Virus record (IMG/VR): IMGVR_UViG_2534681675_000024
Origin: a virus
Lineage: Duplodnaviria > Heunggongvirae > Uroviricota > Caudoviricetes
Strand: one strand, 5' to 3'
DNA length: 16,949 bases
Position 1 is the stretch's first letter. Each line of letters begins with the position of its first letter. The notes beneath the pieces are model-generated. The model was given only the letters and a program-made list of their open reading frames with translations, made no database searches and was not told the DNA's origin. A program made the position numbers and the translations under genes. Of the stretch, positions 3,883-16,949 are shown piece after piece.

Positions 3883-4054
3883 GCCGACAGGAACACCACA
3901 ACCACAAAAACGCTACAAAGATGCCCACGGAGCACTCGTTACTGTCGAAAGCGTGTCTCACAACCGAGTGACGTTTTATCGCGACGGGTATCAATCGCCA
4001 TGCGTACAACCGCTGGCGCGTTTCATGAAGGAGTTCGCGGAGGTTAACCAATGA
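3875..4054 (+). CDS. Small hypothetical protein (59 aa)
   Basis: ATG at 3875 overlaps the antirepressor stop (ATGTTTAA), and its own stop overlaps the ATG at 4051. No domain recognised. Confidence 0.45.
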   Translation: MFKPTGTPQPQKRYKDAHGALVTVESVSHNRVTFYRDGYQSPCVQPLARFMKEFAEVNQ

Positions 4055-5082
4055 TACCCGTCCAGAAGAAGACATTTTCACTGGCTGGTATGTCTCCAAA
4101 ATCCAGCAATATGACGGCAAAGTCAGGCATTAATACAGCAGATACAAGCAAAGTTTATCATTTGCTGGTGGTCGGAACGGATGCCTTAACCATGCCAGAA
4201 ATCTCGGGCGATGATATTAGCGTTGAGAAGGTCAGCGGCTGCGCCAGAGAATTTCTGGTCGTAGATGACCTGTTCTGCTCGCGTAGTGACTCCACAAAAA
4301 TCTTCGTCCACGCGCGTGACGTTAACGAAATGAGCGCGATGTACTGTGCTTCTGGTGCTTCCAATAGCGAGTTTTCGGAGTCCATAAAAAAGAGCTTGCC
4401 GTTATGCGGCAACACGGTTTATGGTTATAAGGCACCTCATAAAACGGGTGCCGGGATTGGCCTCCCGCTGGAGTTATCGGCGATACATGACGCGCCAGCG
4501 TCTTTTTTTGTATCGGCGCACACGCACACCTTATCAATGGTGGGCTGTATGGGGCTACCTTCGGGTAGGCTGGTTTCCGATAACGCCAGTAAGGCCAACT
4601 CCGTACAGTCCACCGCCAGCAAGATTGGTCTCTTCTGCGGTGGTTATAACAAGCCAACGTTATCGGAGGATGCCACATGCTGGCTACTACCCCTACCCAA
4701 AAACCGCAATTTATCTGGATTATCGCCGCAGTTCGCCGCGATTGCCCGACAATTACCGCCAAAATTCATCATATTGCTGCCGAGTCTGAACGCGATGCTC
4801 GCCGTTCTCTGGTGCGCGATCACGTCTGCTTTTTTGCTGGTCGTATCCGCATGGAGGTGGCACATGATTAAAACCTACGATGTGCATATGGACCCCCTCG
4901 AACGCACAAGCCAGATCATCACACTGACAGAAGTGATTAATGACATTCTGGTGAGCAACTCTCCCTCACGAGACGAAAAACTGAAGGCGTTACTCGCGAT
5001 ATTGGATCTCGCCGTTCGTGACGTTCATTTCCTGCTGGAAGGTGGCGAAATGCCAGTAAAACGGGGGGCAACCAATGAATAA
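4051..5082 (+). CDS. Uncertain long ORF (343 codons); possibly several short genes or a partly non-coding leader
   Basis: The frame is open for 343 codons and has a good SD (GGAGG, 7 nt before ATG 4051). However, the first ~270 residues are unusually Ser/Cys/Trp-rich, the frame contains a terminator-like hairpin plus T7 run (4489-4509), and two internal starts have strong SDs: 4677 in another frame (GGAGGA) and 4864 in-frame (GGAGGTGG). Confidence 0.35.
4489..4509 (+). terminator. Terminator-like hairpin (GACGC-GCCA-GCGTC) followed by T7
   Basis: A 5-bp GC stem with a 4-nt loop is followed immediately by TTTTTTT. The stem is short, so function is uncertain. It lies inside the dubious 4051-5082 ORF. 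Confidence 0.3.
4864..5082 (+). CDS. Small hypothetical protein (72 aa), alternative in-frame start within the 4051-5082 ORF
   Basis: A strong SD (GGAGGTGG, 4853-4860) sits 3 nt before ATG 4864. The downstream sequence has ordinary helical-protein composition, and its stop overlaps the next start (ATGAATAA at 5075). Confidence 0.4.
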   Translation: MIKTYDVHMDPLERTSQIITLTEVINDILVSNSPSRDEKLKALLAILDLAVRDVHFLLEGGEMPVKRGATNE

Positions 5083-9113: not shown

Positions 9114-9840
9114 CTATTGCATACCGCAGGGAATGACCAGAACGGAGCGCGAAGAATTAAAAAGTTTCGCTACACAGTGCGGGAATGCTGGCGACATCCA
9201 AAGTCTGGAACGCACTTTAATTATGATTGCGCACTGGATGCGTCAGGGGCAAAGGGTTTCATTTACTGAATATGCCAGCCAGTGGACAGAGGCACAGCGC
9301 GAACGGAGCGACGGTAATCACTCAACACCCGAAATGGCGAAGCAATGGCCTTTCAGTGGTAAACGCTGTATCAGTCCCGGTGGTTCAGATTATTACCCTG
9401 CTGGTGTGGGAGATGAGCCATGTTGTGACGAGACTGAAATCCGCCACGCAGTGACAGTAATTACCGCTGAATACCCACAATTTAACCTTGACGGACTGGC
9501 GCTCCACAACCGGAATGCGGACTGGGAAAACCCGCTTGATAACCCGTCATTTATCGTATCGGCGAAAAGCTGCCTGAGATGGATCAGAGACAACGGGATG
9601 AGTAATGCCCAGATTGAGAGCTTCCCGCAGGATAACCCCACATCTGACACGTTGAAGCATGAAGTGGAGCGATATAACCAGATAAACCACCAGCACAGTG
9701 ATCACCCGCACTATATCCCCAACGGAGCATTTATTGCGGCGATGGTGGCAAGCGGCTACAAGGTTAAGCCAGCGGGAAGAATGAACGCATTTTTCAATAT
9801 TTCAAAAAAGGGATTATGTGCTGCTATGGGTAAAAATTAA
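9103..9840 (+). CDS. Hypothetical protein (245 aa)
   Basis: SD GAGAGG before ATG 9103, coupled to the upstream gene. Protein-like composition, no recognisable domain. Confidence 0.7.
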   Translation: MNNNYCIPQGMTRTEREELKSFATQCGNAGDIQSLERTLIMIAHWMRQGQRVSFTEYASQWTEAQRERSDGNHSTPEMAKQWPFSGKRCISPGGSDYYPAGVGDEPCCDETEIRHAVTVITAEYPQFNLDGLALHNRNADWENPLDNPSFIVSAKSCLRWIRDNGMSNAQIESFPQDNPTSDTLKHEVERYNQINHQHSDHPHYIPNGAFIAAMVASGYKVKPAGRMNAFFNISKKGLCAAMGKN

Positions 9841-9845
9841 ATAAA

Positions 9846-9949
9846 TGGTACAGGTCTGTACAGGTGGGGAGAGGTCATTTTTACCCACCTGTACCACCTA
9901 CAGGCCGCGTCACACAAGGGTTTGTGACATGGTGGTACAGGTGGTACAG
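9846..9949. repeat. Iteron-like repeat cluster 2 (same family as cluster 1) plus a GTCACA-N8-TGTGAC palindrome
   Basis: TGGTACAGGT at 9846-9855, CTGTACAGGTGG at 9856-9867, ACCTGTACCACCTA at 9887-9900, and tandem inverted GGTGGTACAGGTGGTACAG at 9931-9949. A palindrome GTCACACAAGGGTTTGTGAC lies at 9909-9928. TTTTTACC precedes the repeat in both clusters. Confidence 0.6.
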
Positions 9950-10314
9950 CAAAAACAGCGATTTTCTTTATAAGGTATGTTTTGCTCATCTGGCAGGCGG
10001 AGGTATTCGCTGCGGTTTGGCACATAGCCCAGAACAGCAAAGAGTTTTACGAGACTTTTGTAAAATCCAGTGTACAAGGGCGTGACGTTTTTGAAGGAGA
10101 GACCTACGAAATTTTCGTAGTTCAAAAAATAGCCTCTGAGATGTTGTTATGCCTGTTCAGCAAACCATCCGCATAGCTGATCGCGAATCAAATTACCAAT
10201 GGAGCCAGAAGCAAGGGCAGAACTGGAAAGCGCCTGCCGTGAAGAGTAATGCGACATCGTAAATATAGTTTTTAGAGTCCATAAAAAACCTGTCAAAACC
10301 TGACATACAGAACG

Positions 10315-10347
10315 ATGCCACCAGCTACTGAGCGGTGGCATTTTTTT
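10315..10347 (+). terminator. Rho-independent terminator
   Basis: An 8-bp stem (ATGCCACC / GGTGGCAT) with an 11-nt loop is followed by TTTTTTT. Confidence 0.7.
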
Positions 10348-10391
10348 GTGCTATTTGTTTCATATTTTGCAATCACAATGATGAATGTTGC

Positions 10392-10433
10392 GTTTTATGA
10401 AACTATAATGACTGTTGTTTTATACAGTTATAA
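10392..10433 (+). promoter_or_regulatory. Candidate promoter/operator for the 10443-14192 operon
   Basis: Two imperfect 17-bp direct repeats (GTTTTATGAAACTATAA at 10392-10408 and GTTTTATACAGTTATAA at 10417-10433) overlap a TATAAT hexamer at 10404-10409. No good -35 is seen. Confidence 0.3.
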
Positions 10434-10442
10434 GGGGGCGTT

Positions 10443-10616
10443 ATGGCTATTTCAGTAAAGCCAGTATTGATAAGTGAGAAGCAAATGGAAGCGATAAAGA
10501 AAATTCAGGAGGAGCAGCGTAAAAAATCAGAGGTAGGAGTTGCGCCAACGATCCACGAAATTGCTCGGGGATTAATGGATAAGGCGCTGGCTTACACTTT
10601 AACTGGACGTGGGTAA
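10443..10616 (+). CDS. Small hypothetical protein (57 aa), first gene of a three-gene operon
   Basis: Not in the supplied ORF track (below its length threshold). ATG 10443 is preceded by a strong SD (AAGGGGG). The stop at 10614-10616 lies 4 nt before the next ATG (10621). Helical composition; a regulatory role is only a guess. Confidence 0.5.
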
Positions 10617-10620
10617 ATTT

Positions 10621-12087
10621 ATGGCTACTTGGCAACAAGGAATCAACTCAGGCGGTTTTCTGGCTGGCATCGGTACGCAAAATGAGAATGCGCCAAAGGC
10701 AAGCGACATTAACGCAACGCTTGGTCTGATCCGCGAAAACAATGAACTGGCTCGCTCAGGTGCAAATAACGTTGGTCTGACCGCGTTACGTGGTCTGGCT
10801 GGAGTTGCTGATATTTATAAGCAGGAACAGCAACAGAAAGCGATTAATGCGTTCAATAAGGTTCACGCTGATGCATGGGCTTCTGGTGATCCATCGGGAC
10901 TATTTAAGTTTGCCCAGGAAAATCCAGCGTTTGTTGCACAGGTACAACAGGCGTTTTCTGGTCTTAATGATCAGCAACGCAACGATATGGGCGATTTAGC
11001 CATGAGGGCTAACGTCGCTCTTTCTCAGGGACCGGAAGCCTACAGTAAATTCATTACTGACAACAAGGACAGGTTAAATCGCGTTGGTGCTAATGCTGAC
11101 TGGATGATTCAGACAGGTATCCAGAATCCAGAGCAGCTATCACACATGCTGACTACTATGTCTCTCGGTGCGCTTGGACCAGAAAAGGCGTTTGCTGTTC
11201 AGGATAAGATGGTTGGTCGTGAGATTGACCGAGGCCAGCTGGCAGAGACAATCCGCAGCAATAAGGCTGGAGAGGCACTTCAGGCGAGAGGGCAGGATAT
11301 TAGCCGAGCAAATGCGTTAACGTCAGCATATGCACCAACAGCCGCAATGCAGAATTACAATCAGTACGCGCAAATGTTAAAGGCGGACCCAGAGGGGGCG
11401 GCGGCATTTGCGGCAGCGGCTGGAATTAATACAAACGCCAAAAAATTAATGAGTGTTAGAGAAAACGATGATGGCACTGTCACAAAATACTACACAGACG
11501 GAAGTGAAGAGCAGGGAAAACTAAACCAGCCAATATCTGGAGATGGGTTTCGTCCAATAGCTTTGCCAACAGCCCAAAAGATCATGGAAAAGTCGCCAGA
11601 AGGGGCTAAAAAAGCTGCTGGATTTGCATACAGGGTTAGGGATGCTCTTGATTCAATAGATACACTGAAAGACCAGCTTAGCCCACAGCGAGTGGCGATC
11701 ATTAATAATGCTTTGGGTAATGGGACGCTGGCTAACTTAACGCTCAGCCCAGCAGAGCAGCAATACGTTGTTAATGCTAATGACGCAATAATGGCAATAC
11801 TCCGTCAGGAAACAGGGGCATCTATCCTACCAGCTGAAATGTCCAAATATTATCAAATGTATTTCCCTCAGCCTGGTGATTCCACAAAAACCATTGATAC
11901 CAAGCGCCGGAAGATGGAAAACCAGTTCAATTCGCTGAAAGCTGCTTCTGGTCGAGCTTATGATGCTTTGCGGGTTATTTCAGCAGTTGACAGAGGAACT
12001 TCTTCTTCGTCGCAGACATTGCCGCAATCTGAGCAGGTATCACAGCCAGCAGCCAGCAGTAATTTTTCTTCACTATGGGGTGATTAA
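10621..12087 (+). CDS. Large hypothetical protein (488 aa), Cys-free, Ala/Gln/Asn/Gly-rich, predicted mostly alpha-helical
   Basis: ATG 10621 chosen over the track's 10609. No Cys, few aromatics, Q/A-rich low-complexity stretches, and no enzymatic motif I can identify. Its stop overlaps the next start (TAATG). Confidence 0.8.
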
Positions 12088-14192
12088 TGGCTAAAGCATG
12101 GAAAGATGTTATCGCTTCTCCACAGTATCAGGCGTTAGCACCAGAACAAAAAGCGCAGGCTCAGGAGCAATACTTCAATGAAGTCGTGGCCCCGCAAGCC
12201 GGAGAAAGTGTAGAGCAGGCTAAGCAGGCTTTTTATGCTGCCTATCCACTACCATCAACGAATGAAATAAACCGATCCCAATCAGCAACTCAAAATATTC
12301 AACATACATCATCTGATAATTCTCTTGCGTCAGGGTATGCAAAGTTAGCTACTCAGCAAAGAGAGGGGCTTGAGCGTTCAGCAGAACAGGGAGCCAGTCT
12401 TGGGGCTGCGATGCGCGATGCTATAACAGGCGAAAGCCGAATGACTCCAGAGATGGAGAGACTGCAAAATGTCGACCTTGCCCCAGAGTTAACCTCACTC
12501 AGCATGGATGCTCTAAAAGCTCGATGGTCTCAACTTTTCGGCTCTGACGCATCTCAGGAAAAGATTCTTCAGAGCATGGGAGCGAAATTAAGGCAGGATG
12601 AGAAGGGTAACACTATCGTTTCCCTGCCATCCGGTGATTATGCTCTGAACAAGCCGGGTTTATCGCCGCAAGACGTGGCATCGTTTCTGGCTAATGCGCT
12701 GGCGTTTACACCAGCGGGCAGGGCTGGAACGGTGCTTGGTGCCATAGGAAAATCAGCAGCTACAGATTTAGCACTACAGGGAGCCACCAGCCTTGCTGGT
12801 GGAGAAGATATTGATCCGTTACAAACGGTAATTTCTGCTGGCATTGGTGGTATTGGTAAGGGGCTGGAAAATACAGCGAGTGCGGTTTCGAGGGCTGTTC
12901 GTGGTGATATGTCGCCTGAAGCAAAGGCTGCTGTCGACTTTGCATCGGAAAGAAATCTGCCGTTAATGACCAGTGACATGCTGAAAGATAAAACCTTTAT
13001 GCAGAGTCAGGCTCAGACATTAGGCGAAAGAGTTCCTTTTTTTGGAACCGGTAAGAATCGGCTGAATCAACAACAAGCACGAGAAAATTTAGTCAGAACA
13101 TTTAGCGATGGTCTGGGGGGAATTTCAGATAAACAGCTTTATGAGTCTGCGACTAAAGGGCAGCAAAAATTCATTGAGGCAGCAGGAAAGCGATATAACC
13201 GCATAATTGACGCTATGGGGGATACCCCTGTCGATCTCTCAAACACGGTAAAAACTATCGACAATCAGATTGCCGTGTTAAGCCGCCCTGGCAAATCTCA
13301 GGATAGAGCCGCGGTAAAAGTCTTGCAGCAATTTAAAGACGATATCACCAGCGGACCAAATGACCTGCGTCTGGCGAGGGAAAACAGAACCGATCTTCGA
13401 AAGCGATTTATAGCGTCATCTGACACTGTTGATAAAGATACGCTCCAGAAAGCCAGCGATATTATCTACAAGGCATATACGGCGGATATGAAAAAAGCCG
13501 TAGCCAAAAATCTTGGAGCAGACGAAGCCATTAATATGGCAAGGGTTGATCGCTCATGGTCTAAATTCAATGACATGATGGGAAGAACGCGCGTTCAAAA
13601 GGCAATAGCCAGCGGCAAGGCCACGCCTGAGGATGTAACAAAACTCGTTTTTAGCCAAAGCCCATCAGAACGTTCTCAGCTTTACAGGCTTCTGGATGAC
13701 AATGGTAGGCAAAACGCACGAGCAGCTATAGTTCAGAATGCTGTAGATAAGGCGACTGATCCGTCTGGAAATATCAGTGTTGAGAAGTTTATTAATGCGT
13801 TACACCGGAACAGGAAGCAATCAGCAACTTTCTTTAAAGGCGTACATGGAAAGGAACTGGACGGCGTTATTAAATACCTCAACGATACAAGACACGCGGC
13901 AAAAGCGAACGTTCAAAACTTAAATGGTCAGCAGCTTTATGGATTGTTAGTTGGTGGTGGCATCATAAACGCAGCAGTATTAGCGGGGATGCTAAAAACG
14001 GCTGCGTTTGTTGTTCCTGCTGCTGGTGCCGTAGGCGGAGCAGCGAAGGCATACGAAAGCCCTGTTATACGAAATGCCTTGTTACGTCTGGCAAATACGC
14101 CAAAAGGTAGCACAGCATATGACAGAGCGATCAGTACGGTCACACAATCGCTCACCAGAGTCGCACAGGCATCACAAAAAGAATCTCAATAA
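12087..14192 (+). CDS. Large hypothetical protein (701 aa), Cys-free, helical, with a C-terminal Gly/Ala-rich hydrophobic hairpin
   Basis: Long uninterrupted ORF coupled to the upstream gene. The segment LYGLLVGGGIINAAVLAGMLKTAAFVVPAAGAVGGAAKAY (about nt 13934-14056) looks like a membrane-insertion hairpin. GIGKG and GAIGKS do not fit true Walker A spacing. Confidence 0.85.
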   Translation: MAKAWKDVIASPQYQALAPEQKAQAQEQYFNEVVAPQAGESVEQAKQAFYAAYPLPSTNEINRSQSATQNIQHTSSDNSLASGYAKLATQQREGLERSAEQGASLGAAMRDAITGESRMTPEMERLQNVDLAPELTSLSMDALKARWSQLFGSDASQEKILQSMGAKLRQDEKGNTIVSLPSGDYALNKPGLSPQDVASFLANALAFTPAGRAGTVLGAIGKSAATDLALQGATSLAGGEDIDPLQTVISAGIGGIGKGLENTASAVSRAVRGDMSPEAKAAVDFASERNLPLMTSDMLKDKTFMQSQAQTLGERVPFFGTGKNRLNQQQARENLVRTFSDGLGGISDKQLYESATKGQQKFIEAAGKRYNRIIDAMGDTPVDLSNTVKTIDNQIAVLSRPGKSQDRAAVKVLQQFKDDITSGPNDLRLARENRTDLRKRFIASSDTVDKDTLQKASDIIYKAYTADMKKAVAKNLGADEAINMARVDRSWSKFNDMMGRTRVQKAIASGKATPEDVTKLVFSQSPSERSQLYRLLDDNGRQNARAAIVQNAVDKATDPSGNISVEKFINALHRNRKQSATFFKGVHGKELDGVIKYLNDTRHAAKANVQNLNGQQLYGLLVGGGIINAAVLAGMLKTAAFVVPAAGAVGGAAKAYESPVIRNALLRLANTPKGSTAYDRAISTVTQSLTRVAQASQKESQ

Positions 14193-14211
14193 CTGGTTAG
14201 CCATGGATGGC

Positions 14212-14826
14212 TTAAATATCTCTGCTGTCTCCATTAGGAAATAAAAGATAATATGGATTTGCCTTTCTTGCTCTCCTTGCTTCACCTGGATACCTGTTAG
14301 TCAGTAGCTTGCATAATGAGCAGAGAACAACACTCAAGAAAATTCCGAATGAGAAGATCAATATCTCACCAAAAATCAATGGCGATATTAAATTTTCAGG
14401 ATTTAATGATAAGTCAATGTTAAAAACATATTGAGCAATACCAGTAAGTATCAATAATATAATCCCTATGGAATACATTGCTGTTTCCCAAACATCAGAC
14501 AGTCTATTTTTGAATTTTTCGCTGGAGTAGTAGTTTGTTATAAAGTCAGAAAAATCACTCTCATATGCATCATCTTTAGGTGATGTTAGAAATCCTCTGT
14601 CTCTCCATACCTTCTCCCAATTAGTCGATTCTTTTTTTAAGGAAAAATAAATATGTATTGCCAAAAGGATAGCCAAAATTGGTGTTAGCTCTAAAAAATA
14701 GAATGTTATGGAATAAATAATACTGCCATGTTCAAACTCATCTGGGACTATCATGTATGCACAAAAATAAATTGAAAAGTACACCATGCAGATAGTTAGC
14801 AATTCTTTAGTATCTTTTCTGCTCAC
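14212..14826 (-). CDS. Integral membrane protein (about 204 aa, four predicted TM helices), strongly AT-rich
   Basis: Four hydrophobic stretches of about 20 residues each, with a basic C-terminal tail (RRARK). GTG start at 14826 is preceded by SD AAGGGGG; an alternative ATG is at 14787. The gene is markedly AT-rich relative to its neighbours and converges on the 701-aa gene with only 19 bp between stops. Confidence 0.8.
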   Translation of the reverse strand: MSRKDTKELLTICMVYFSIYFCAYMIVPDEFEHGSIIYSITFYFLELTPILAILLAIHIYFSLKKESTNWEKVWRDRGFLTSPKDDAYESDFSDFITNYYSSEKFKNRLSDVWETAMYSIGIILLILTGIAQYVFNIDLSLNPENLISPLIFGEILIFSFGIFLSVVLCSLCKLLTNRYPGEARRARKANPYYLLFPNGDSRDI

Positions 14827-15007
14827 ACCAACCCCCTTTAGCGTTGTTTAGAATGGCAATCATCATATATCCAAGACATGGCATTTGGTACATAGCTTGG
14901 GTCGGGATTTCAAATCCGCTCCCAGTTGATGGGGCCGTTACATTACGCGCATATCCGCTTTATGTGAAACAGGAAGATTTTTCTGATATCACTGCCACAG
15001 CAAACAC

Positions 15008-15036
15008 CAATTTCGTGACCAGTACGCGCGCGAGGG
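15008..15036 (+). repeat. Repeat family copy 1 (CAATTTCGTGACCAGTACGCGCGCGAGGG)
   Basis: About 29 nt with a CGCGCGCG core; matches copy 4 (16904-16933) at roughly 23 of 29 positions. Confidence 0.6.
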
Positions 15037-15041
15037 GTATC

Positions 15042-15063
15042 AGTTGCAAAAAATTTTGCAACT
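15042..15063. repeat. Near-perfect palindrome AGTTGCAAAAAATTTTGCAACT between repeat copies 1 and 2
   Basis: 9-bp arms GTTGCAAAA / TTTTGCAAC. A related palindrome GTGCAAATTTGCAC lies at 16746-16759. Confidence 0.5.
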
Positions 15064-15065
15064 AC

Positions 15066-15094
15066 GTCCGACCAGTACGCGCACGATGGAGGGG
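15066..15094 (+). repeat. Repeat family copy 2 (GACCAGTACGCGCACGATGGAGGGG)
   Basis: Shares GACCAGTACGCGC-CGA---GGGG with copy 1. Confidence 0.55.
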
Positions 15095-15295
15095 AGTACC
15101 ATAAAACTGTTCTCTACATGAGACAGAGTGGTGGTGATGTGTTGATTATCGGCGTATATGCGCACAGGACGCGCTATGACGATGTTTTATGCGGGTACAC
15201 CAATCACATGTATCTGGTGTGATAAATCGCGTTACATGACATCTCATGTTGTGCTGGTGATTATCACGACGTTCTGAATCTGGCCTTTGCCTGAT

Positions 15296-15322
15296 ATTTT
15301 GCGACAAGTACGCGCGCGTAGC
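15296..15322 (+). repeat. Repeat family copy 3 (TTTTGCGACAAGTACGCGCGCGTAGC)
   Basis: Same GAC-AGTACGCGCGCG core. A weaker partial copy (CATTTTGTGACCAATGCG) lies at about 15349-15366. Confidence 0.55.
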
Positions 15323-15346
15323 ATCAACAGCATACACATTGGATAT

Positions 15347-15547
15347 TCATTTTGTGACCAATGCGATAAGTAGCGGGATAAGAATTGATAAAATCAACAG
15401 GACGATGATCCACTTTTGATTCTCGTCCATCTTATCTGCTAGGCGACGCTCCATTCCGTGCATATCACCGCGAATGGCAATCATCTCATTGCGAACATCC
15501 GAGAAGTGGTTGGCTTGATGTTCAATGTGTGGCGTTCTGCCTTTCAT
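15347..15547 (-). CDS. Small C-terminally anchored membrane protein (66 aa), XhlA/holin-like topology
   Basis: ATG at 15547 with SD GAGGA about 7 nt upstream. Polar, charged N-terminal half followed by a single C-terminal TM helix (WIIVLLILSILIPLLIALV). The family call is tentative. Confidence 0.6.
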   Translation of the reverse strand: MKGRTPHIEHQANHFSDVRNEMIAIRGDMHGMERRLADKMDENQKWIIVLLILSILIPLLIALVTK

Positions 15548-15626
15548 GTCTGATCCTCACCTATCGTCACCACCTGCTGGTGTATAAAGGTATTAGCCCA
15601 AGCAGCTTTCCAATGGGCACTCATGT

Positions 15627-16082
15627 TTATACGCTGACCTTACAATCAATCACCGCTTTTAACTTTTCAGCATTGCTTCCCTGACGCTTCCACGCGCTGT
15701 AAATATCTTTATCCCACGCTTTACCAGCTTTTGTTTGATAGCCTGCTTCATTGATCCGTTCAGCTATCACACGCCCATTATCAAATCCCTGTTGGATGGT
15801 ATCGGCAATGATCTTTATAACTGCCGTTTCGTTATATGGTTTTGGTGGGATGTTCGGCTTTCCGGCAATAAGCGACGCAGCGGCTTTTTCCATGCGCTCC
15901 ACCAGCCCAAGCATTCGTGAATCAATAGACTTTTCCGGCTGCCCCAGCTTCATGCGAATCGCATCAACAAGCCAAGAGGTTTTATCTCCTCCAGAAGCGA
16001 GAACAGACCGATTAAACTCATCCTGCAATTCAGATGGGATGCGGAACGCGATCAGATTAGATTTGCTCATTGCAAAGACCAT
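15627..16082 (-). CDS. Ribbon-helix-helix (Arc/CopG-like) DNA-binding protein with a C-terminal recombinase-like helical domain (151 aa)
   Basis: The N-terminus has a classic RHH pattern (LIAFRIPSELQDEFNRSVLASGGDKTSWLVDAIRMKL). The C-terminal segment GRVIAERINEAGYQTKAGKAWDKDIYSAWKR resembles the recombinase-domain motif of serine recombinases, but there is no catalytic domain. Start could be 16082 or 16070; no clear SD. Confidence 0.7.
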   Translation of the reverse strand: MVFAMSKSNLIAFRIPSELQDEFNRSVLASGGDKTSWLVDAIRMKLGQPEKSIDSRMLGLVERMEKAAASLIAGKPNIPPKPYNETAVIKIIADTIQQGFDNGRVIAERINEAGYQTKAGKAWDKDIYSAWKRQGSNAEKLKAVIDCKVSV

Positions 16083-16183
16083 ATCAGTGAGTAATATCCA
16101 TACAGTATACCACTGTATAACACTGTTATACGCTCAAATATCAGCCAGAAAATAACAGACCAATCACAAATCTATCGCTGTGT

Positions 16184-16306
16184 TGTTGGTTCAGAGCTGG
16201 GCTGTGTTGGTTCAAAATGAGTTGATGTTGGTTCAATATTTTAGAAAAAACACAATAAAAACAACGCTCTTTACAAATTGAACCAACTGAACCAACTGAA
16301 CCAACA
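16184..16306. promoter_or_regulatory. Operator/iteron array: three TGTTGGTTCA direct repeats at 21-bp spacing plus three tandem inverted TGAACCAAC copies
   Basis: Direct copies at 16184-16193, 16205-16214 and 16226-16235. After an AT-rich spacer, TGAACCAAC repeats sit at 16279-16287, 16288-16296 and 16297-16305. A TATAAT hexamer at 16323-16328 and SD GAGAGG precede the perC-like ATG. Confidence 0.7.
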
Positions 16307-16341
16307 CCTTTTTGCTTATCTATATAATCTGAGAGGCAGAA

Positions 16342-16629
16342 ATGATAAAGGACAGGAAAGCTGAAGAGCTGGAGTCAAAAGGGCTATACCGGAGAGCTGC
16401 CGCGCGATGGGCAGAAGTCATGATGCTGGCAGATGGCGATAAAGAACGTGAACATGCAGCAAACAGACGCTCTGAATGTATCCGTAAGGCGGCACGCCCA
16501 CCAGCAACTACAGACAGATTCGGAGATTTAAGACAGGCAGTTAAGCGGACTCATTCGGCTCTTGGTATGGATGAGGAAGCGAGAGGGTACTTCAGGCGTT
16601 ATCGCGATAAAGATTGCCAGAGACAGTAA
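16342..16629 (+). CDS. PerC-family transcriptional regulator-like protein (95 aa)
   Basis: Size and the N-terminal motif ESKGLYRRAAARWAEVM resemble PerC/Pch-family regulators known from EPEC/EHEC plasmids and prophages. TATAAT and an SD lie upstream. Confidence 0.7.
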   Translation: MIKDRKAEELESKGLYRRAAARWAEVMMLADGDKEREHAANRRSECIRKAARPPATTDRFGDLRQAVKRTHSALGMDEEARGYFRRYRDKDCQRQ

Positions 16630-16903
16630 TGCTCTCTCTGTTTTGGCAAATTACCCCTCACTTTGAAGGGATCGGAGCTATAAAAATGGTGTTATCCGGC
16701 TTCCTCAAATTGAGGATTGTGGAAGAATCAATGGGTTAGGTCATCGTGCAAATTTGCACTCTGCCAGCCAACGCAATTTCTCGTTGGCGGAAATATCAGG
16801 TATTTACTGAACGAACGGTCTACCAGTCTGTTCAGTTACCAGTTGCACATGGCTGTTTCATGTGAGAACGGAGGTTTTTTTCGGACATCGCTATTGGGTA
16901 CAG

Positions 16904-16933
16904 CAATTTCACGAGCAATACGCGCGCGCAGGA
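16904..16933 (+). repeat. Repeat family copy 4 (CAATTTCACGAGCAATACGCGCGCGCAGG)
   Basis: Close match to copy 1 at 15008-15036. It sits at the window edge, where a short minus-strand ORF appears to start at 16949. Confidence 0.55.
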
Positions 16934-16949
16934 CAACAAGCCTGAACAT

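Follow-up and report, generated by a model that had tools for sequence, protein, structure and literature searches.

What is a family of short direct repeats doing in a gene-free stretch of a phage-related element? The question is raised by one locus in the window, the whole 16,949-nt stretch of DNA analyzed here. Judging by its gene content, the window is an integrative P4/PICI-like phage satellite that depends on a helper. It contains an integrase, AlpA, a C4/isrK immunity locus, a P4-type primase and origin iterons, along with P22-like ejection-protein genes of its own, and a scan of its ORFs recovered no terminase or capsid family; an integrase, independent replication and a lack of terminase and capsid genes, the features by which membership among the satellites is recognized, are all found. 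The element has inserted into the interval from yicC to dinD and bears integrase arm sites at each end, and it is present in ~10% of complete E. coli genomes. A literature search returned no paper on satellites with ejection-protein genes, on the yicC-dinD site, or on this type of satellite.

A first-pass annotation of the sequence had described four clear repeat copies, and these are borne out. The pattern GACCAGTACGCGCGCG, allowing up to three mismatches, matches four times in the window, always on the plus strand (15017-15032, 15070-15085, 15303-15318 and 16913-16928), against a mean of 0.12 in shuffled sequences, where four matches were reached in 0 of 200 shuffles. With their flanks, the copies have essentially the extents given earlier, and a de novo repeat search of the window recovers the same repeat families as the motif scan. 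The near-perfect 22-bp palindrome reported between two of the copies is likewise real, being self-complementary at 20 of 22 positions. The repeat features are as follows:

14834-15325, plus strand: conserved non-coding block (~490 bp) holding the repeats, conserved across E. coli carriers
14937-14954, plus strand: copy 0, core only
15009-15035, plus strand: copy 1, AATTTCGTGACCAGTACGCGCGCGAGG, matching a small-terminase gene (terS) at 18 of 18 positions
15042-15063, no strand: near-perfect A/T-centered palindrome AGTTGCAAAAAATTTTGCAACT, between copies 1 and 2
15065-15092, plus strand: copy 2, without the 5' TTTCGTG head, found by the motif scan, matching terS at 12 of 12 positions
15163-15177, plus strand: possible degenerate core CAGGACGCGC (core 15165-15174), weak, a 10-mer match with one mismatch
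15296-15322, plus strand: copy 3, ATTTTGCGACAAGTACGCGCGCGTAGC, on the right margin of the block
16905-16932, plus strand: copy 4, ~300 nt inside the right attachment site

The core of copy 0 (14941-14950) reads CATTACGCGC in the window and CAGTACGCGC in most other E. coli copies. Spacing within the block is irregular (79, 53, 92 and 141 nt). A degenerate fifth copy, proposed earlier and located at 15350-15370, is not supported: with a 20-nt weight matrix derived from 16 repeat copies it does not reach 12 bits, and it overlaps the 3' end of a 66-aa gene. Other E. coli elements carry a copy-3-like repeat ~75 nt after the PerC gene, and an element may hold up to four to six copies in all.

The motif is specific to the element and is not a common genome-wide repeat. 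A 30-nt query of copy 1 matches 651 of 5426 complete E. coli genomes (~12%), at a median of one place and a maximum of five places per matching genome, and ~35 kb of flanking chromosome scanned with the repeat weight matrix gave no strong match; together, these results rule out extragenic repeats of the REP/BIME and ERIC types. Among the matches listed for viral contigs (80 of at least 120 stretches), multi-copy matches occur only in two contigs of this element family, and a scan of viral contigs with the motif alone was swamped by single chance matches. The first-pass interpretation stands insofar as it described element-specific, reiterated cis-elements in a gene-free stretch; the evidence does not favor any of the three specific roles it suggested (regulator binding sites, small RNA genes and recombination sites), as set out below.

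The stretch that holds most of the copies is itself conserved. In ~545 E. coli genomes the block (query positions 5-496) is 96-98% identical and the flanks differ, with variable, defence-like cargo genes (Abi, SieA-like) on both sides. Its left edge includes the ribosome-binding site and start codon of the leftward cargo gene, which differs from element to element, and to the right of copy 3 relatives diverge immediately, so that the conserved block ends there. About 9 of 547 E. coli records show only 80-90% identity over the block region; in AR_0017, the single divergent record that was aligned, one repeat unit and the palindrome are missing, the latter lost through recombination between copies 1 and 2. 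The ORFs of the block had been judged implausible, and relatives agree, because its 86-aa and 63-aa ORFs are disrupted in them by a 1-nt indel and a 53-nt deletion. Against phages, the whole block shows no similarity at E <= 0.01, and short block queries gave only chance matches in the phage collection; the decisive match, described next, came from the 30-nt query against E. coli genomes.

The repeat core TTTCGTGACCAGTACGCG is identical, at 18 of 18 positions, to nt 169-186 of an Sf6/HK620-type terS gene in an E. coli prophage (L219). This gene lies directly upstream of the TerL gene and the portal gene, and its product is 87.9% identical to the annotated TerS of phages HF4s, Huey and Sf101. 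Among PDB entries, the product matched the Sf6 gene 1 protein (E = 1e-80). The allele represented by copy 1 is found in 18 viral contigs. Copy 2 equals terS nt 175-186 (12 of 12), and copy 3 agrees with terS of phage HK620 itself at 14 of 14 positions, or at 19 of 20 with one gap. Overall, the terS segment matched by the repeat family spans nt 166-186 (18-21 nt), or codons 56-62. Furthermore, four satellite variants are exactly equal to existing terS alleles:

TTTCGTGACCAG..., the E. coli satellite form
TTTCGCGACCAG..., in satellites L161 and L162
TTTCGTGAACAG..., in Proteus-like satellites
TTTCGTGAGCAG..., embedded in the primase gene of a Morganella satellite

The base composition of satellites and of the contigs bearing their alleles fits roughly: contigs with the GAACAG allele have 41-42% G+C and their satellites 37-41%, and contigs with E. 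coli-type alleles have 44-51% and their satellites 47-50%, ranges that overlap only loosely. For a contig with the GAACAG allele, the best phage relative is one of Providencia, whose identity is only 74% across 35% of the query length.

The same segment is unusually constrained within the phage genes. Across 77 unique terS ORFs, retrieved with a pattern that permits all of the synonymous codons concerned, the F, D and Y codons of the repeat-matching segment show no synonymous variation. Of all runs of five conserved columns in the gene, this one has the lowest entropy (0.14, where the gene averages 0.61), and only 8 of 100,000 random five-column sets were as low in synonymous entropy (8e-5). 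Such synonymous constraint is what an embedded cis-acting site predicts. Leavitt and colleagues (2013) reportedly placed the Sf6 pac site within the part of terS encoding the DNA-binding domain, and we take codons 56-62 to be at the edge of that part.

Each phage terS gene examined has one copy of the segment, and the array is found only in the satellite. Every satellite copy leaves the terS sequence directly after TACGCG and continues into a CG/CA tract absent from terS; because of this common boundary and foreign tail, the copies may stem from one old capture and not from repeated captures. A single ancestral fragment, with all copies sharing the terS boundary at nt 186 and the same CG tail, is also what would be expected if the repeats were functionless relics, either scraps of recombination with a helper terS or remains of a decayed satellite terS, duplicated by slippage. 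Other phage scraps do lie in the window (a 60-nt roi fragment and a terS fragment), and recombination between repeat copies does occur. Yet we regard this explanation as quite unlikely. The exactness of the repeats in a diverged non-coding context, from E. coli to Proteus-like elements, is unlike decay, and a relic would not follow different terS alleles in different host groups. Moreover, no other Sf6-type terS sequence survives around any copy, and what has been retained is exactly the piece of the phage gene under the strongest synonymous constraint.

A repeat that copies 18-21 constrained nucleotides of a helper's terS, allele by allele, points instead to packaging-site mimicry, a role in protein binding that the first-pass annotation had not considered. 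On this evidence, the repeats are probably an array of mimics of helper TerS recognition (pac) sites through which the satellite would hijack headful packaging. The location of the block would count for this reading as well. On the P4 map, the helper-derived cos site adjoins the variable cargo region, and the block, a conserved island between two variable cargo slots, occupies a position like that of the P4 cos. The middle of the block (15086-15296) is not a patchwork of other terS fragments; it matches only block homologues.

A second type of putative packaging sequence accompanies the repeats:

14973-14994, plus strand: P22-type pac-like unit GAAGATTTTTCTGATATCACTG, beside copy 1
4199-4314, minus strand: P22-type terS gene fragment containing P22 pac, from its match to P22 terS
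4311-4330: weak repeat-like sequence preceding the P22 terS fragment, 12.5 bits

The pac-like unit agrees with the annotated P22 pac site at 16 of 22 positions and with the published P22 pseudo-pac pattern (PMC11226127) at 16 of 17, and it is identical in every E. coli copy read. Near-matches to that pattern arise by chance ~1.2 times per window; it is the relatives L161 and L162, whose tandem units reach 17 of 17 positions of the pattern and 30 of 33 identities to P22 terS, that tie the unit to P22 terS. In the gene fragment, 107 nt (4199-4305) are 93.5% identical to the terS genes of P22 and of two E. coli phages, JEP4 and APC_JM3.2, and the fragment encloses the P22 pac site at 4284-4305, as annotated in the P22 record. 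On its sequence, the 4199-4314 fragment stands outside the repeat family and is part of the same putative packaging-signal system. The repeat-like sequence that precedes it is suggestive only, since 0.37 matches of 12.5 bits are expected per shuffled window, and direct alignment of 4200-4450 with the block was not significant. In L161, L162 and L172 the repeat lies directly 5' of the tandem pac-like units, and in L218 it lies directly 5' of a pac-like unit within the isrK leader. The recurrence of the repeat beside P22-pac-derived units in the block and in these relatives, and the presence of a pac-containing P22 terS fragment in the window, would further favor a role in packaging.

We can envisage how such sites would work. 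When a P22-like helper grows, the satellite would excise and replicate, and the helper's ring-shaped TerS would bind the block at 14.9-15.3 kb, which offers several same-strand copies of the TTTCGTGACCAGTACGCG type and one P22-type pac-derived unit. TerS would then recruit TerL, nearby DNA would be cut, and satellite concatemers would be packed by headful. A second, bona fide P22-type pac would be available in the terS fragment at 4.2-4.3 kb. Both TerS types, that of Sf6/HK620 and that of P22, occur in E. coli P22-like phages, and sites for two unrelated TerS families could make helpers of either packaging specificity usable; an array of copies could also draw TerS away from the helper. It is from the sequence comparisons that we infer TerS binding, cutting, packaging and interference with the helper. 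Tentatively, the 490-bp block as a whole could be a multi-specificity packaging adaptor that combines allele-exact mimics of Sf6 gp1-type and P22 gp3-type sites, a possibility we hold with somewhat less than even confidence. Various P22-like helpers could then package a satellite that has its own ejection proteins, and the satellite would titrate their TerS in the process. A point against the pac reading comes from a review according to which DNA binding in vitro by the TerS proteins of pac phages is weak and shows little specificity.

Known systems share parts of this arrangement. The P22 pac, 22 bp in gene 3 (the P22 terS), is a short asymmetric TerS recognition site within terS coding sequence; P22 pac itself is present in the terS fragment of the window, and a diverged copy stands beside repeat copy 1. 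The repeats, in contrast, have a different sequence and match a different, unrelated TerS family, and they are multiple and non-coding, whereas P22 pac is single-copy and coding in the phage. With Sf6/HK620-type terS genes the repeat shares nt 166-186, allele by allele, but the satellite copies are reiterated and bear the CG/CA tail that terS is without. Lambda cosB (R1-R3), the SPP1 pacL and pacR boxes and the P1 pac hexamers consist of several short repeats bound by TerS, distributed over 100-400 bp and often separated by bent, A/T-rich DNA; in those cases it is the phage that carries the array, whereas here the array is found in the satellite only. P4 (with the P2 cos), SaPIbov5 (cos) and EcCICFT073 are terminase-less satellites with a cis site recognized by the helper terminase. 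EcCICFT073 has two lambda-like cos sites in which cosB is altered and is read by Rpp-TerS (PMC6092414, PMC6739421); it also carries a gene of the PerC type, and the window likewise has such a gene and two candidate sites. The sites of these three satellites are cos, however, whereas the signals in the window are candidates of the pac type, for two TerS families, arranged in an array.

If our reading is correct, it bears on how satellites of this kind are mobilized. Satellites that borrow cos sites are known, and the packaging of enterobacterial pac-phage satellites without a TerS of their own is much less clear. A short non-coding motif would reveal the terminase family, and even the allele, on which a satellite depends, and helper prediction would become a sequence search. 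The pac site of Sf6/HK620-type phages would be pinpointed to terS nt 166-186, with independent support from synonymous constraint, and the satellite would hedge between two packaging specificities. Because defence-like cargo lies directly beside the block in a common element, the mode of transfer would also bear on the spread of that cargo.

Alternatively, the repeats may be operators for a DNA-binding protein of the satellite. This protein, be it the 67-aa RHH protein found in distant relatives or some other regulator, would control its own gene and might bind helper terS, blocking terS expression or packaging. Distant relatives have a single-copy repeat that always adjoins a small RHH gene, often in its 5' leader, and the repeat abuts the RHH ribosome-binding site in Xenorhabdus, Photorhabdus and Proteus-like elements. 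In genomes, a repeat lies within ~120 nt of the 67-aa RHH gene in all eight loci that carry this gene and is missing from 11 of 12 loci without it (the exception being L140); viral contigs broadly agree, apart from three repeat loci without a detected RHH gene and one RHH locus without a repeat. The core is, by inspection, partly dyad-symmetric (CGTGAAC-A-GTACGCG), and the terS allele match would also be explained if the helper were the target. Even so, we consider operators unlikely. The E. coli elements with the most copies (4-6) are without a 67-aa RHH homologue, and a tblastn search for a decayed 67-aa RHH gene between copies 2 and 3 found no match. The Morganella repeat lies downstream of the RHH gene and not upstream, one repeat copy is inside the primase coding region, the 151-aa RHH protein occurs in many relatives without the repeat, and the physical link to pac-derived units is left unexplained. 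For the RHH and PerC-like regulators suggested in the first-pass annotation, the evidence thus points elsewhere.

Another possibility is that the repeats act as RNA, with transcripts antisense to helper terS mRNA lowering TerS production. In the window, the genes flanking the block on either side lie on the minus strand, so that read-through RNA would carry the antisense of the repeats, and the 107-nt P22 terS fragment is antisense to the plus-strand leader of the isrK/C4 locus. Antisense RNA is also the means of immunity in this element family, as in P4 and P1. We nevertheless find this very unlikely. Orientation is not kept: the repeats are in sense in the RHH leader of distant relatives and in the isrK leader of L218, and in L161 the repeat is upstream of a gene on the same strand. 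Since orientation relative to local transcription differs among lineages, a DNA site fits better than an RNA element. An 18-nt complementarity deep inside a coding region would be a weak target, and no promoter or terminator defines a small RNA. The earlier suggestion of small RNA genes fails for similar reasons: Rfam gave no match, terminator-like sites are lacking, and there is just one promoter-like site where 4.8 would be expected. The only Rfam matches in the window are C4 and isrK, at 4432-4620; elsewhere over 9700-16949 nothing matched even at E <= 1. Neither C4 nor isrK RNA pairs better with the two strands of the block than with shuffled targets.

It has also been suggested that the repeats are recombination sites. 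The arm sites of the integrase, found at both ends of the element, have another sequence, GTGTACATA, and three or four repeat copies lie 1.6 kb inside, so that arm-type sites can be set aside. A related proposal is that the repeats are linkers between modules, helping related satellites to swap cargo cassettes. The conserved block does stop right after copy 3 and gives way to variable genes, 24 nt are common to copy 3 and the post-PerC copy of other elements, which together bracket the cargo-p151-origin-PerC segment, and a deletion has fused copies 1 and 2. This we judge highly improbable, since no repeat marks the left boundary of the block, stretches of 18-25 nt offer little length for efficient RecA-dependent homologous exchange, and both the terS allele identity and the constraint inside phage terS would be unexplained. 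As a separate observation, one recombination junction coincides with copy 3.

Several further candidates were rejected. P4-like replication iterons are also short direct repeats in a non-coding stretch, but their positions and sequences differ from those of the repeats, whose spacing is irregular; the window has separate iteron clusters with other sequences, and in the relative L161 the corresponding region contains no repeats recognized by Tandem Repeats Finder. The clusters are:

16170-16310: iteron cluster TGTTGGTTCA
9850-9950: iteron cluster GGTACAGGT

A lambda-type cosN gave eight loose matches in the window against 9.3 expected, none of them in the block, and two chance-level matches in 75 loci of relatives. 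The ends of P4 showed no similarity that would indicate a P2/P4 cos. The neighboring 151-aa protein was considered as an Rpp-like redirecting protein; it has no significant PDB sequence match and belongs to no Pfam family, and lacking a match to any solved protein it has none to the solved Rpp structures. Its AlphaFold model contains a confident C-terminal helical domain, but Foldseek against the PDB returned nothing below E = 1.

Two smaller features complete the picture of the locus. The 60-nt roi fragment is a further phage scrap in the window. The palindrome between copies 1 and 2 keeps its arms among relatives and varies at its center (A6T4, A4T6, A5T4), and possibly serves as a bend or spacer.

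The window is an integrative phage satellite in which we found no terminase or capsid gene. Its contents, from left to right, are as follows.

Gene content of the element
Left part: tyrosine integrase, AlpA-type regulator, AntA/B antirepressor
4432-4620: isrK and C4 RNAs (Rfam)
Next: zinc-ribbon/Toprim/DUF5906 primase
Next: homologues of the P22 ejection proteins gp20 and gp16
Next: weakly SieA-like membrane protein, 66-aa protein, 151-aa RHH protein
Right part: origin iterons, then a PerC-family protein

E. coli CH4804 carries the element between yicC and dinD; each end has integrase arm repeats GTGTACATA, and the right end falls about 100 nt past the window; a relative in strain 83972 adjoins a tRNA-Thr gene downstream of proA.

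When up to 3 mismatches are allowed, the motif GACCAGTACGCGCGCG matches the window four times, always on the + strand (starts 15017, 15070, 15303 and 16913), whereas shuffled windows average 0.12 matches and never reach four. The four clear copies described in the first-pass annotation are thus real, and a separate repeat search of the window recovers the same repeat families as the motif scan.

Repeat copies with flanks
15009-15035, +: copy 1
15065-15092, +: copy 2
15296-15322, +: copy 3
16905-16932, +: copy 4

The annotation was also right that two copies flank a palindrome: a 22-bp near-palindrome with conserved arms and a variable A/T centre lies at 15042-15063 between copies 1 and 2, and is absent from AR_0017, which is among the roughly 9 of 547 records only 80-90% identical over the region. 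The degenerate fifth copy it proposed (15350-15370) is not supported, scoring below 12 bits on a 20-nt weight matrix and overlapping a coding 3' end; two core-only copies, at 14941 and 15165, had been overlooked. The repeat region, whose ORFs had been judged implausible, is indeed non-coding because a 1-nt indel and a 53-nt deletion break both ORFs in relatives. Nor is the family a common genome-wide repeat, the finding that the annotation had said would refute it: a 30-nt copy-1 query matches only 651 of 5426 complete E. coli genomes, at a median of 1 and a maximum of 5 places per matching genome, and 35 kb of flanking chromosome holds no strong weight-matrix match. The 10-nt core CAGTACGCGC also occurs at 11362-11371 in the gp20-like gene, where it encodes NQYAQ and is retained in relatives, probably as a coding coincidence. 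Separately, a perfect 14-bp palindrome, GTGCAAATTTGCAC (16746-16759), lies 145 nt upstream of copy 4 and shares TGCAAA/TTTGCA arms with the palindrome between copies 1 and 2.

A block at 14834-15325 is 96-98% identical in about 545 of the 5426 genomes while the genes on either side differ, so that the repeats occupy a conserved non-coding island with a cargo slot on each side. The left slot (14212-14826) holds a SieA-like or other gene, always starting exactly at the block edge. In the right slot (15326-15626) there is the gene of a 66-aa tail-anchored protein, one of the Abi family or a pair of unknown genes. Both flanks are cargo hotspots, as judged from the window and loci L002, L003 and L004. 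Within the block, 15086-15296 is conserved, yet has no similarity to anything other than block homologues.

The origin of the repeats emerged among the weak matches of the 30-nt genome query, which included an exact 18-mer within an E. coli MBT-5 gene labelled 'hypothetical protein', directly upstream of the terminase large-subunit and portal genes. Its product is 87.9% identical to annotated small terminases (TerS) of phages HF4s, Huey and Sf101 and matches the Sf6 gene 1 protein, a TerS, in the PDB (E = 1e-80). Copy 1 equals nt 169-186 of this terS gene (TTTCGTGACCAGTACGCG, encoding FRDQYA), copy 2 agrees with nt 175-186 and copy 3 with the HK620 terS allele TTTTCGCGACAAGTACGCG, and copy A of the related locus L161 matches nt 166-186 at 20 of 21 positions. 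The repeat corresponds to terS codons 56-62; the terS continuation AAGGC is replaced in every satellite copy by a CG/CA tract of variable length, and the rest of the block has no further resemblance to these terS genes. By a rough estimate, the chance of an exact 18-mer in some terS gene of the E. coli pangenome is about 1e-5 or less. Work by Leavitt et al. in 2013 reportedly placed the Sf6 pac site, the TerS recognition site that starts headful packaging, within the part of terS encoding the DNA-binding domain.

Scanning viral contigs for DNA encoding FR[D/E]xYAKA, with every synonymous codon permitted, we found that four satellite variants each exactly equal one terS allele.

Satellite variants identical to a terS allele
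CGT GAC CAG: E. coli satellites
CGC GAC CAG: L161 and L162
CGT GAA CAG: Proteus-like satellites
CGT GAG CAG: copy inside a Morganella primase gene

The G+C contents of allele contigs and satellites agree only roughly (41-42% vs 37-41% for the GAA allele, 44-51% vs 47-50% for the E. coli type), and the phage nearest to a GAA-allele contig is a Providencia phage with only 74% identity over 35% of the query. The repeats are very probably terS-derived sequences that track terS alleles. Within terS itself, the F, D and Y codons of the segment have zero synonymous variation in 77 unique ORFs, retrieved with a pattern that favoured none of the segment's codons, whereas these codons elsewhere in terS have entropies of 0.2-1.0. 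No other run of five conserved columns in terS has an entropy as low as that of the segment (0.14; gene mean 0.61), a level that only 8 of 100,000 random column sets reached, kinship among the 77 sequences being ignored. Synonymous constraint of this kind is characteristic of a cis-acting DNA site embedded in terS.

A second terS family is represented as well. The sequence GAAGATTTTTCTGATATCACTG (14973-14994) lies 17 bases before copy 1 and agrees with the annotated P22 pac site at 16 of 22 positions and with a published pseudo-pac pattern at 16 of 17 (PMC11226127); alone this is weak, as about 1.2 near-matches per window are expected. In L161, L162 and L172, two or three tandem pac-like units occupy the corresponding place, with a repeat copy directly before each array; one unit matches the pattern at 17 of 17 positions and one is identical to P22 terS at 30 of 33. 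In another E. coli element, L218, the leader that precedes an isrK-like RNA contains a repeat and, after it, a pac-like unit. On the - strand at 4199-4305, a 107-nt fragment shares 93.5% identity with the terS genes of P22 and the E. coli phages JEP4 and APC_JM3.2; this P22-type fragment (107-116 nt, 4199-4314) covers exactly the annotated pac site, at 4284-4305. It could provide a pac site or an antisense RNA directed at the terS of a helper phage, or both. The fragment lies inside an ORF annotated 'ash family protein', antisense to the + strand isrK/C4 leader. Together, the repeats and P22 pac-type pieces indicate that segments of two unrelated terS families have been kept, and in the family with a known pac site, that of P22, the retained piece is pac.

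Among 75 relative loci fetched with the 151-aa protein as bait, the core CAGTACGCGC, extended to TTTCGTGAaCAGTACGCGCG, is found again in elements of Tatumella, Photorhabdus, Xenorhabdus and Morganella and in Proteus-like ones. Because this 20-mer is nearly exact amid diverging surroundings, it must be read by something sequence-specific. In the distant relatives the repeat is always single-copy, on the primase-operon strand and no more than about 120 nt from a 67-aa RHH gene.

Relatives with the repeat next to the 67-aa RHH gene
L128, L130, L134-L137, L142, L182, L185-L194: Morganellaceae, Xenorhabdus, Photorhabdus and Tatumella elements

Loci lacking this gene also lack the motif, save four (L140, L189, L195 and L196). 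This tie keeps alive an alternative in which the repeats are operators, possibly acting on helper terS too. No 67-aa RHH gene is present in the E. coli elements, whose copy numbers are the highest. In Morganella morganii H1r, the repeat lies in frame inside the primase gene (L136, 10526-10541, encoding FREQYARA) with a satellite-type CG tail and replaces sequence that sister elements carry there, as though the site had been transferred into coding sequence. The word CTTTGATGATTTA often flanks the repeat in the relatives listed above and covers stop codons of unrelated upstream genes.

The simplest account, which we consider rather probable from these sequence comparisons, is that the repeats are packaging mimics of the recognition site of Sf6/HK620-type TerS. 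Since repeat orientation relative to local transcription varies among lineages, a DNA site fits better than an RNA site. Arrayed with a P22-type site in one cis-acting block, such mimics would recruit the helper terminase and lead to headful packaging. TerS proteins of pac phages bind DNA weakly and with poor specificity in vitro, according to a review; multiple copies may give a ring of weak DNA-binding domains greater avidity and may compete with the helper.

The element would work in the manner of known satellites but is built from other parts. The cos site of P2 is present in P4, and SaPIbov5 and EcCICFT073 likewise have cos sites. In EcCICFT073 there are two, and their altered cosB is recognised by an Rpp-TerS complex (PMC6092414, PMC6739421). 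We found no lambda cosN in the window, no likeness to P4 cos in the element and no sequence match between its proteins and solved Rpp structures. In contrast to these cos sites, its proposed signals are pac-type, derive from two TerS families and are reiterated.

Other features of the element deserve mention. The gp20-like and gp16-like genes and the weakly SieA-like membrane protein gene (10609-14826) lie in a terminase-less P4/PICI-like satellite; relatives have a DUF2824 gene and one more besides, and our literature search found no paper describing satellites that encode P22-like ejection proteins. The 151-aa protein (15627-16082, - strand), conserved beside the block and with homologues across Enterobacterales, combines an RHH-like N-terminus with a C-terminal domain that is confidently predicted to be helical (pLDDT about 90 at residues 80-150) and has no fold or sequence match in the PDB. 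Two separate iteron-like clusters, one between the 151-aa gene and PerC (16170-16310) that has TGTTGGTTCA in both orientations and one after the 245-aa gene (9850-9950) made of GGTACAGGT-type repeats, may parallel the ori and crr regions of P4. A 60-nt piece (16681-16740), 88-98% identical to the roi/antirepressor 3' end of lambdoid and P22-like phages (HK620, Stx phages), looks like a leftover from recombination. The Phage_ASH Pfam match (aa 124-220 of ORF 4051-5082; window 4420-4711) coincides with the Rfam isrK and C4 genes, and the 'Ash protein family' may represent a non-coding RNA locus read as protein. Finally, the box AGTCCATAAAAAA lies about 50 nt upstream of isrK (4379-4390), precedes genes in the relatives L128, L134 and L161, and recurs, within 10276-10347, before a 70-nt unit that ends in a strong hairpin and T-run (10315-10347) and is possibly an unannotated small RNA.
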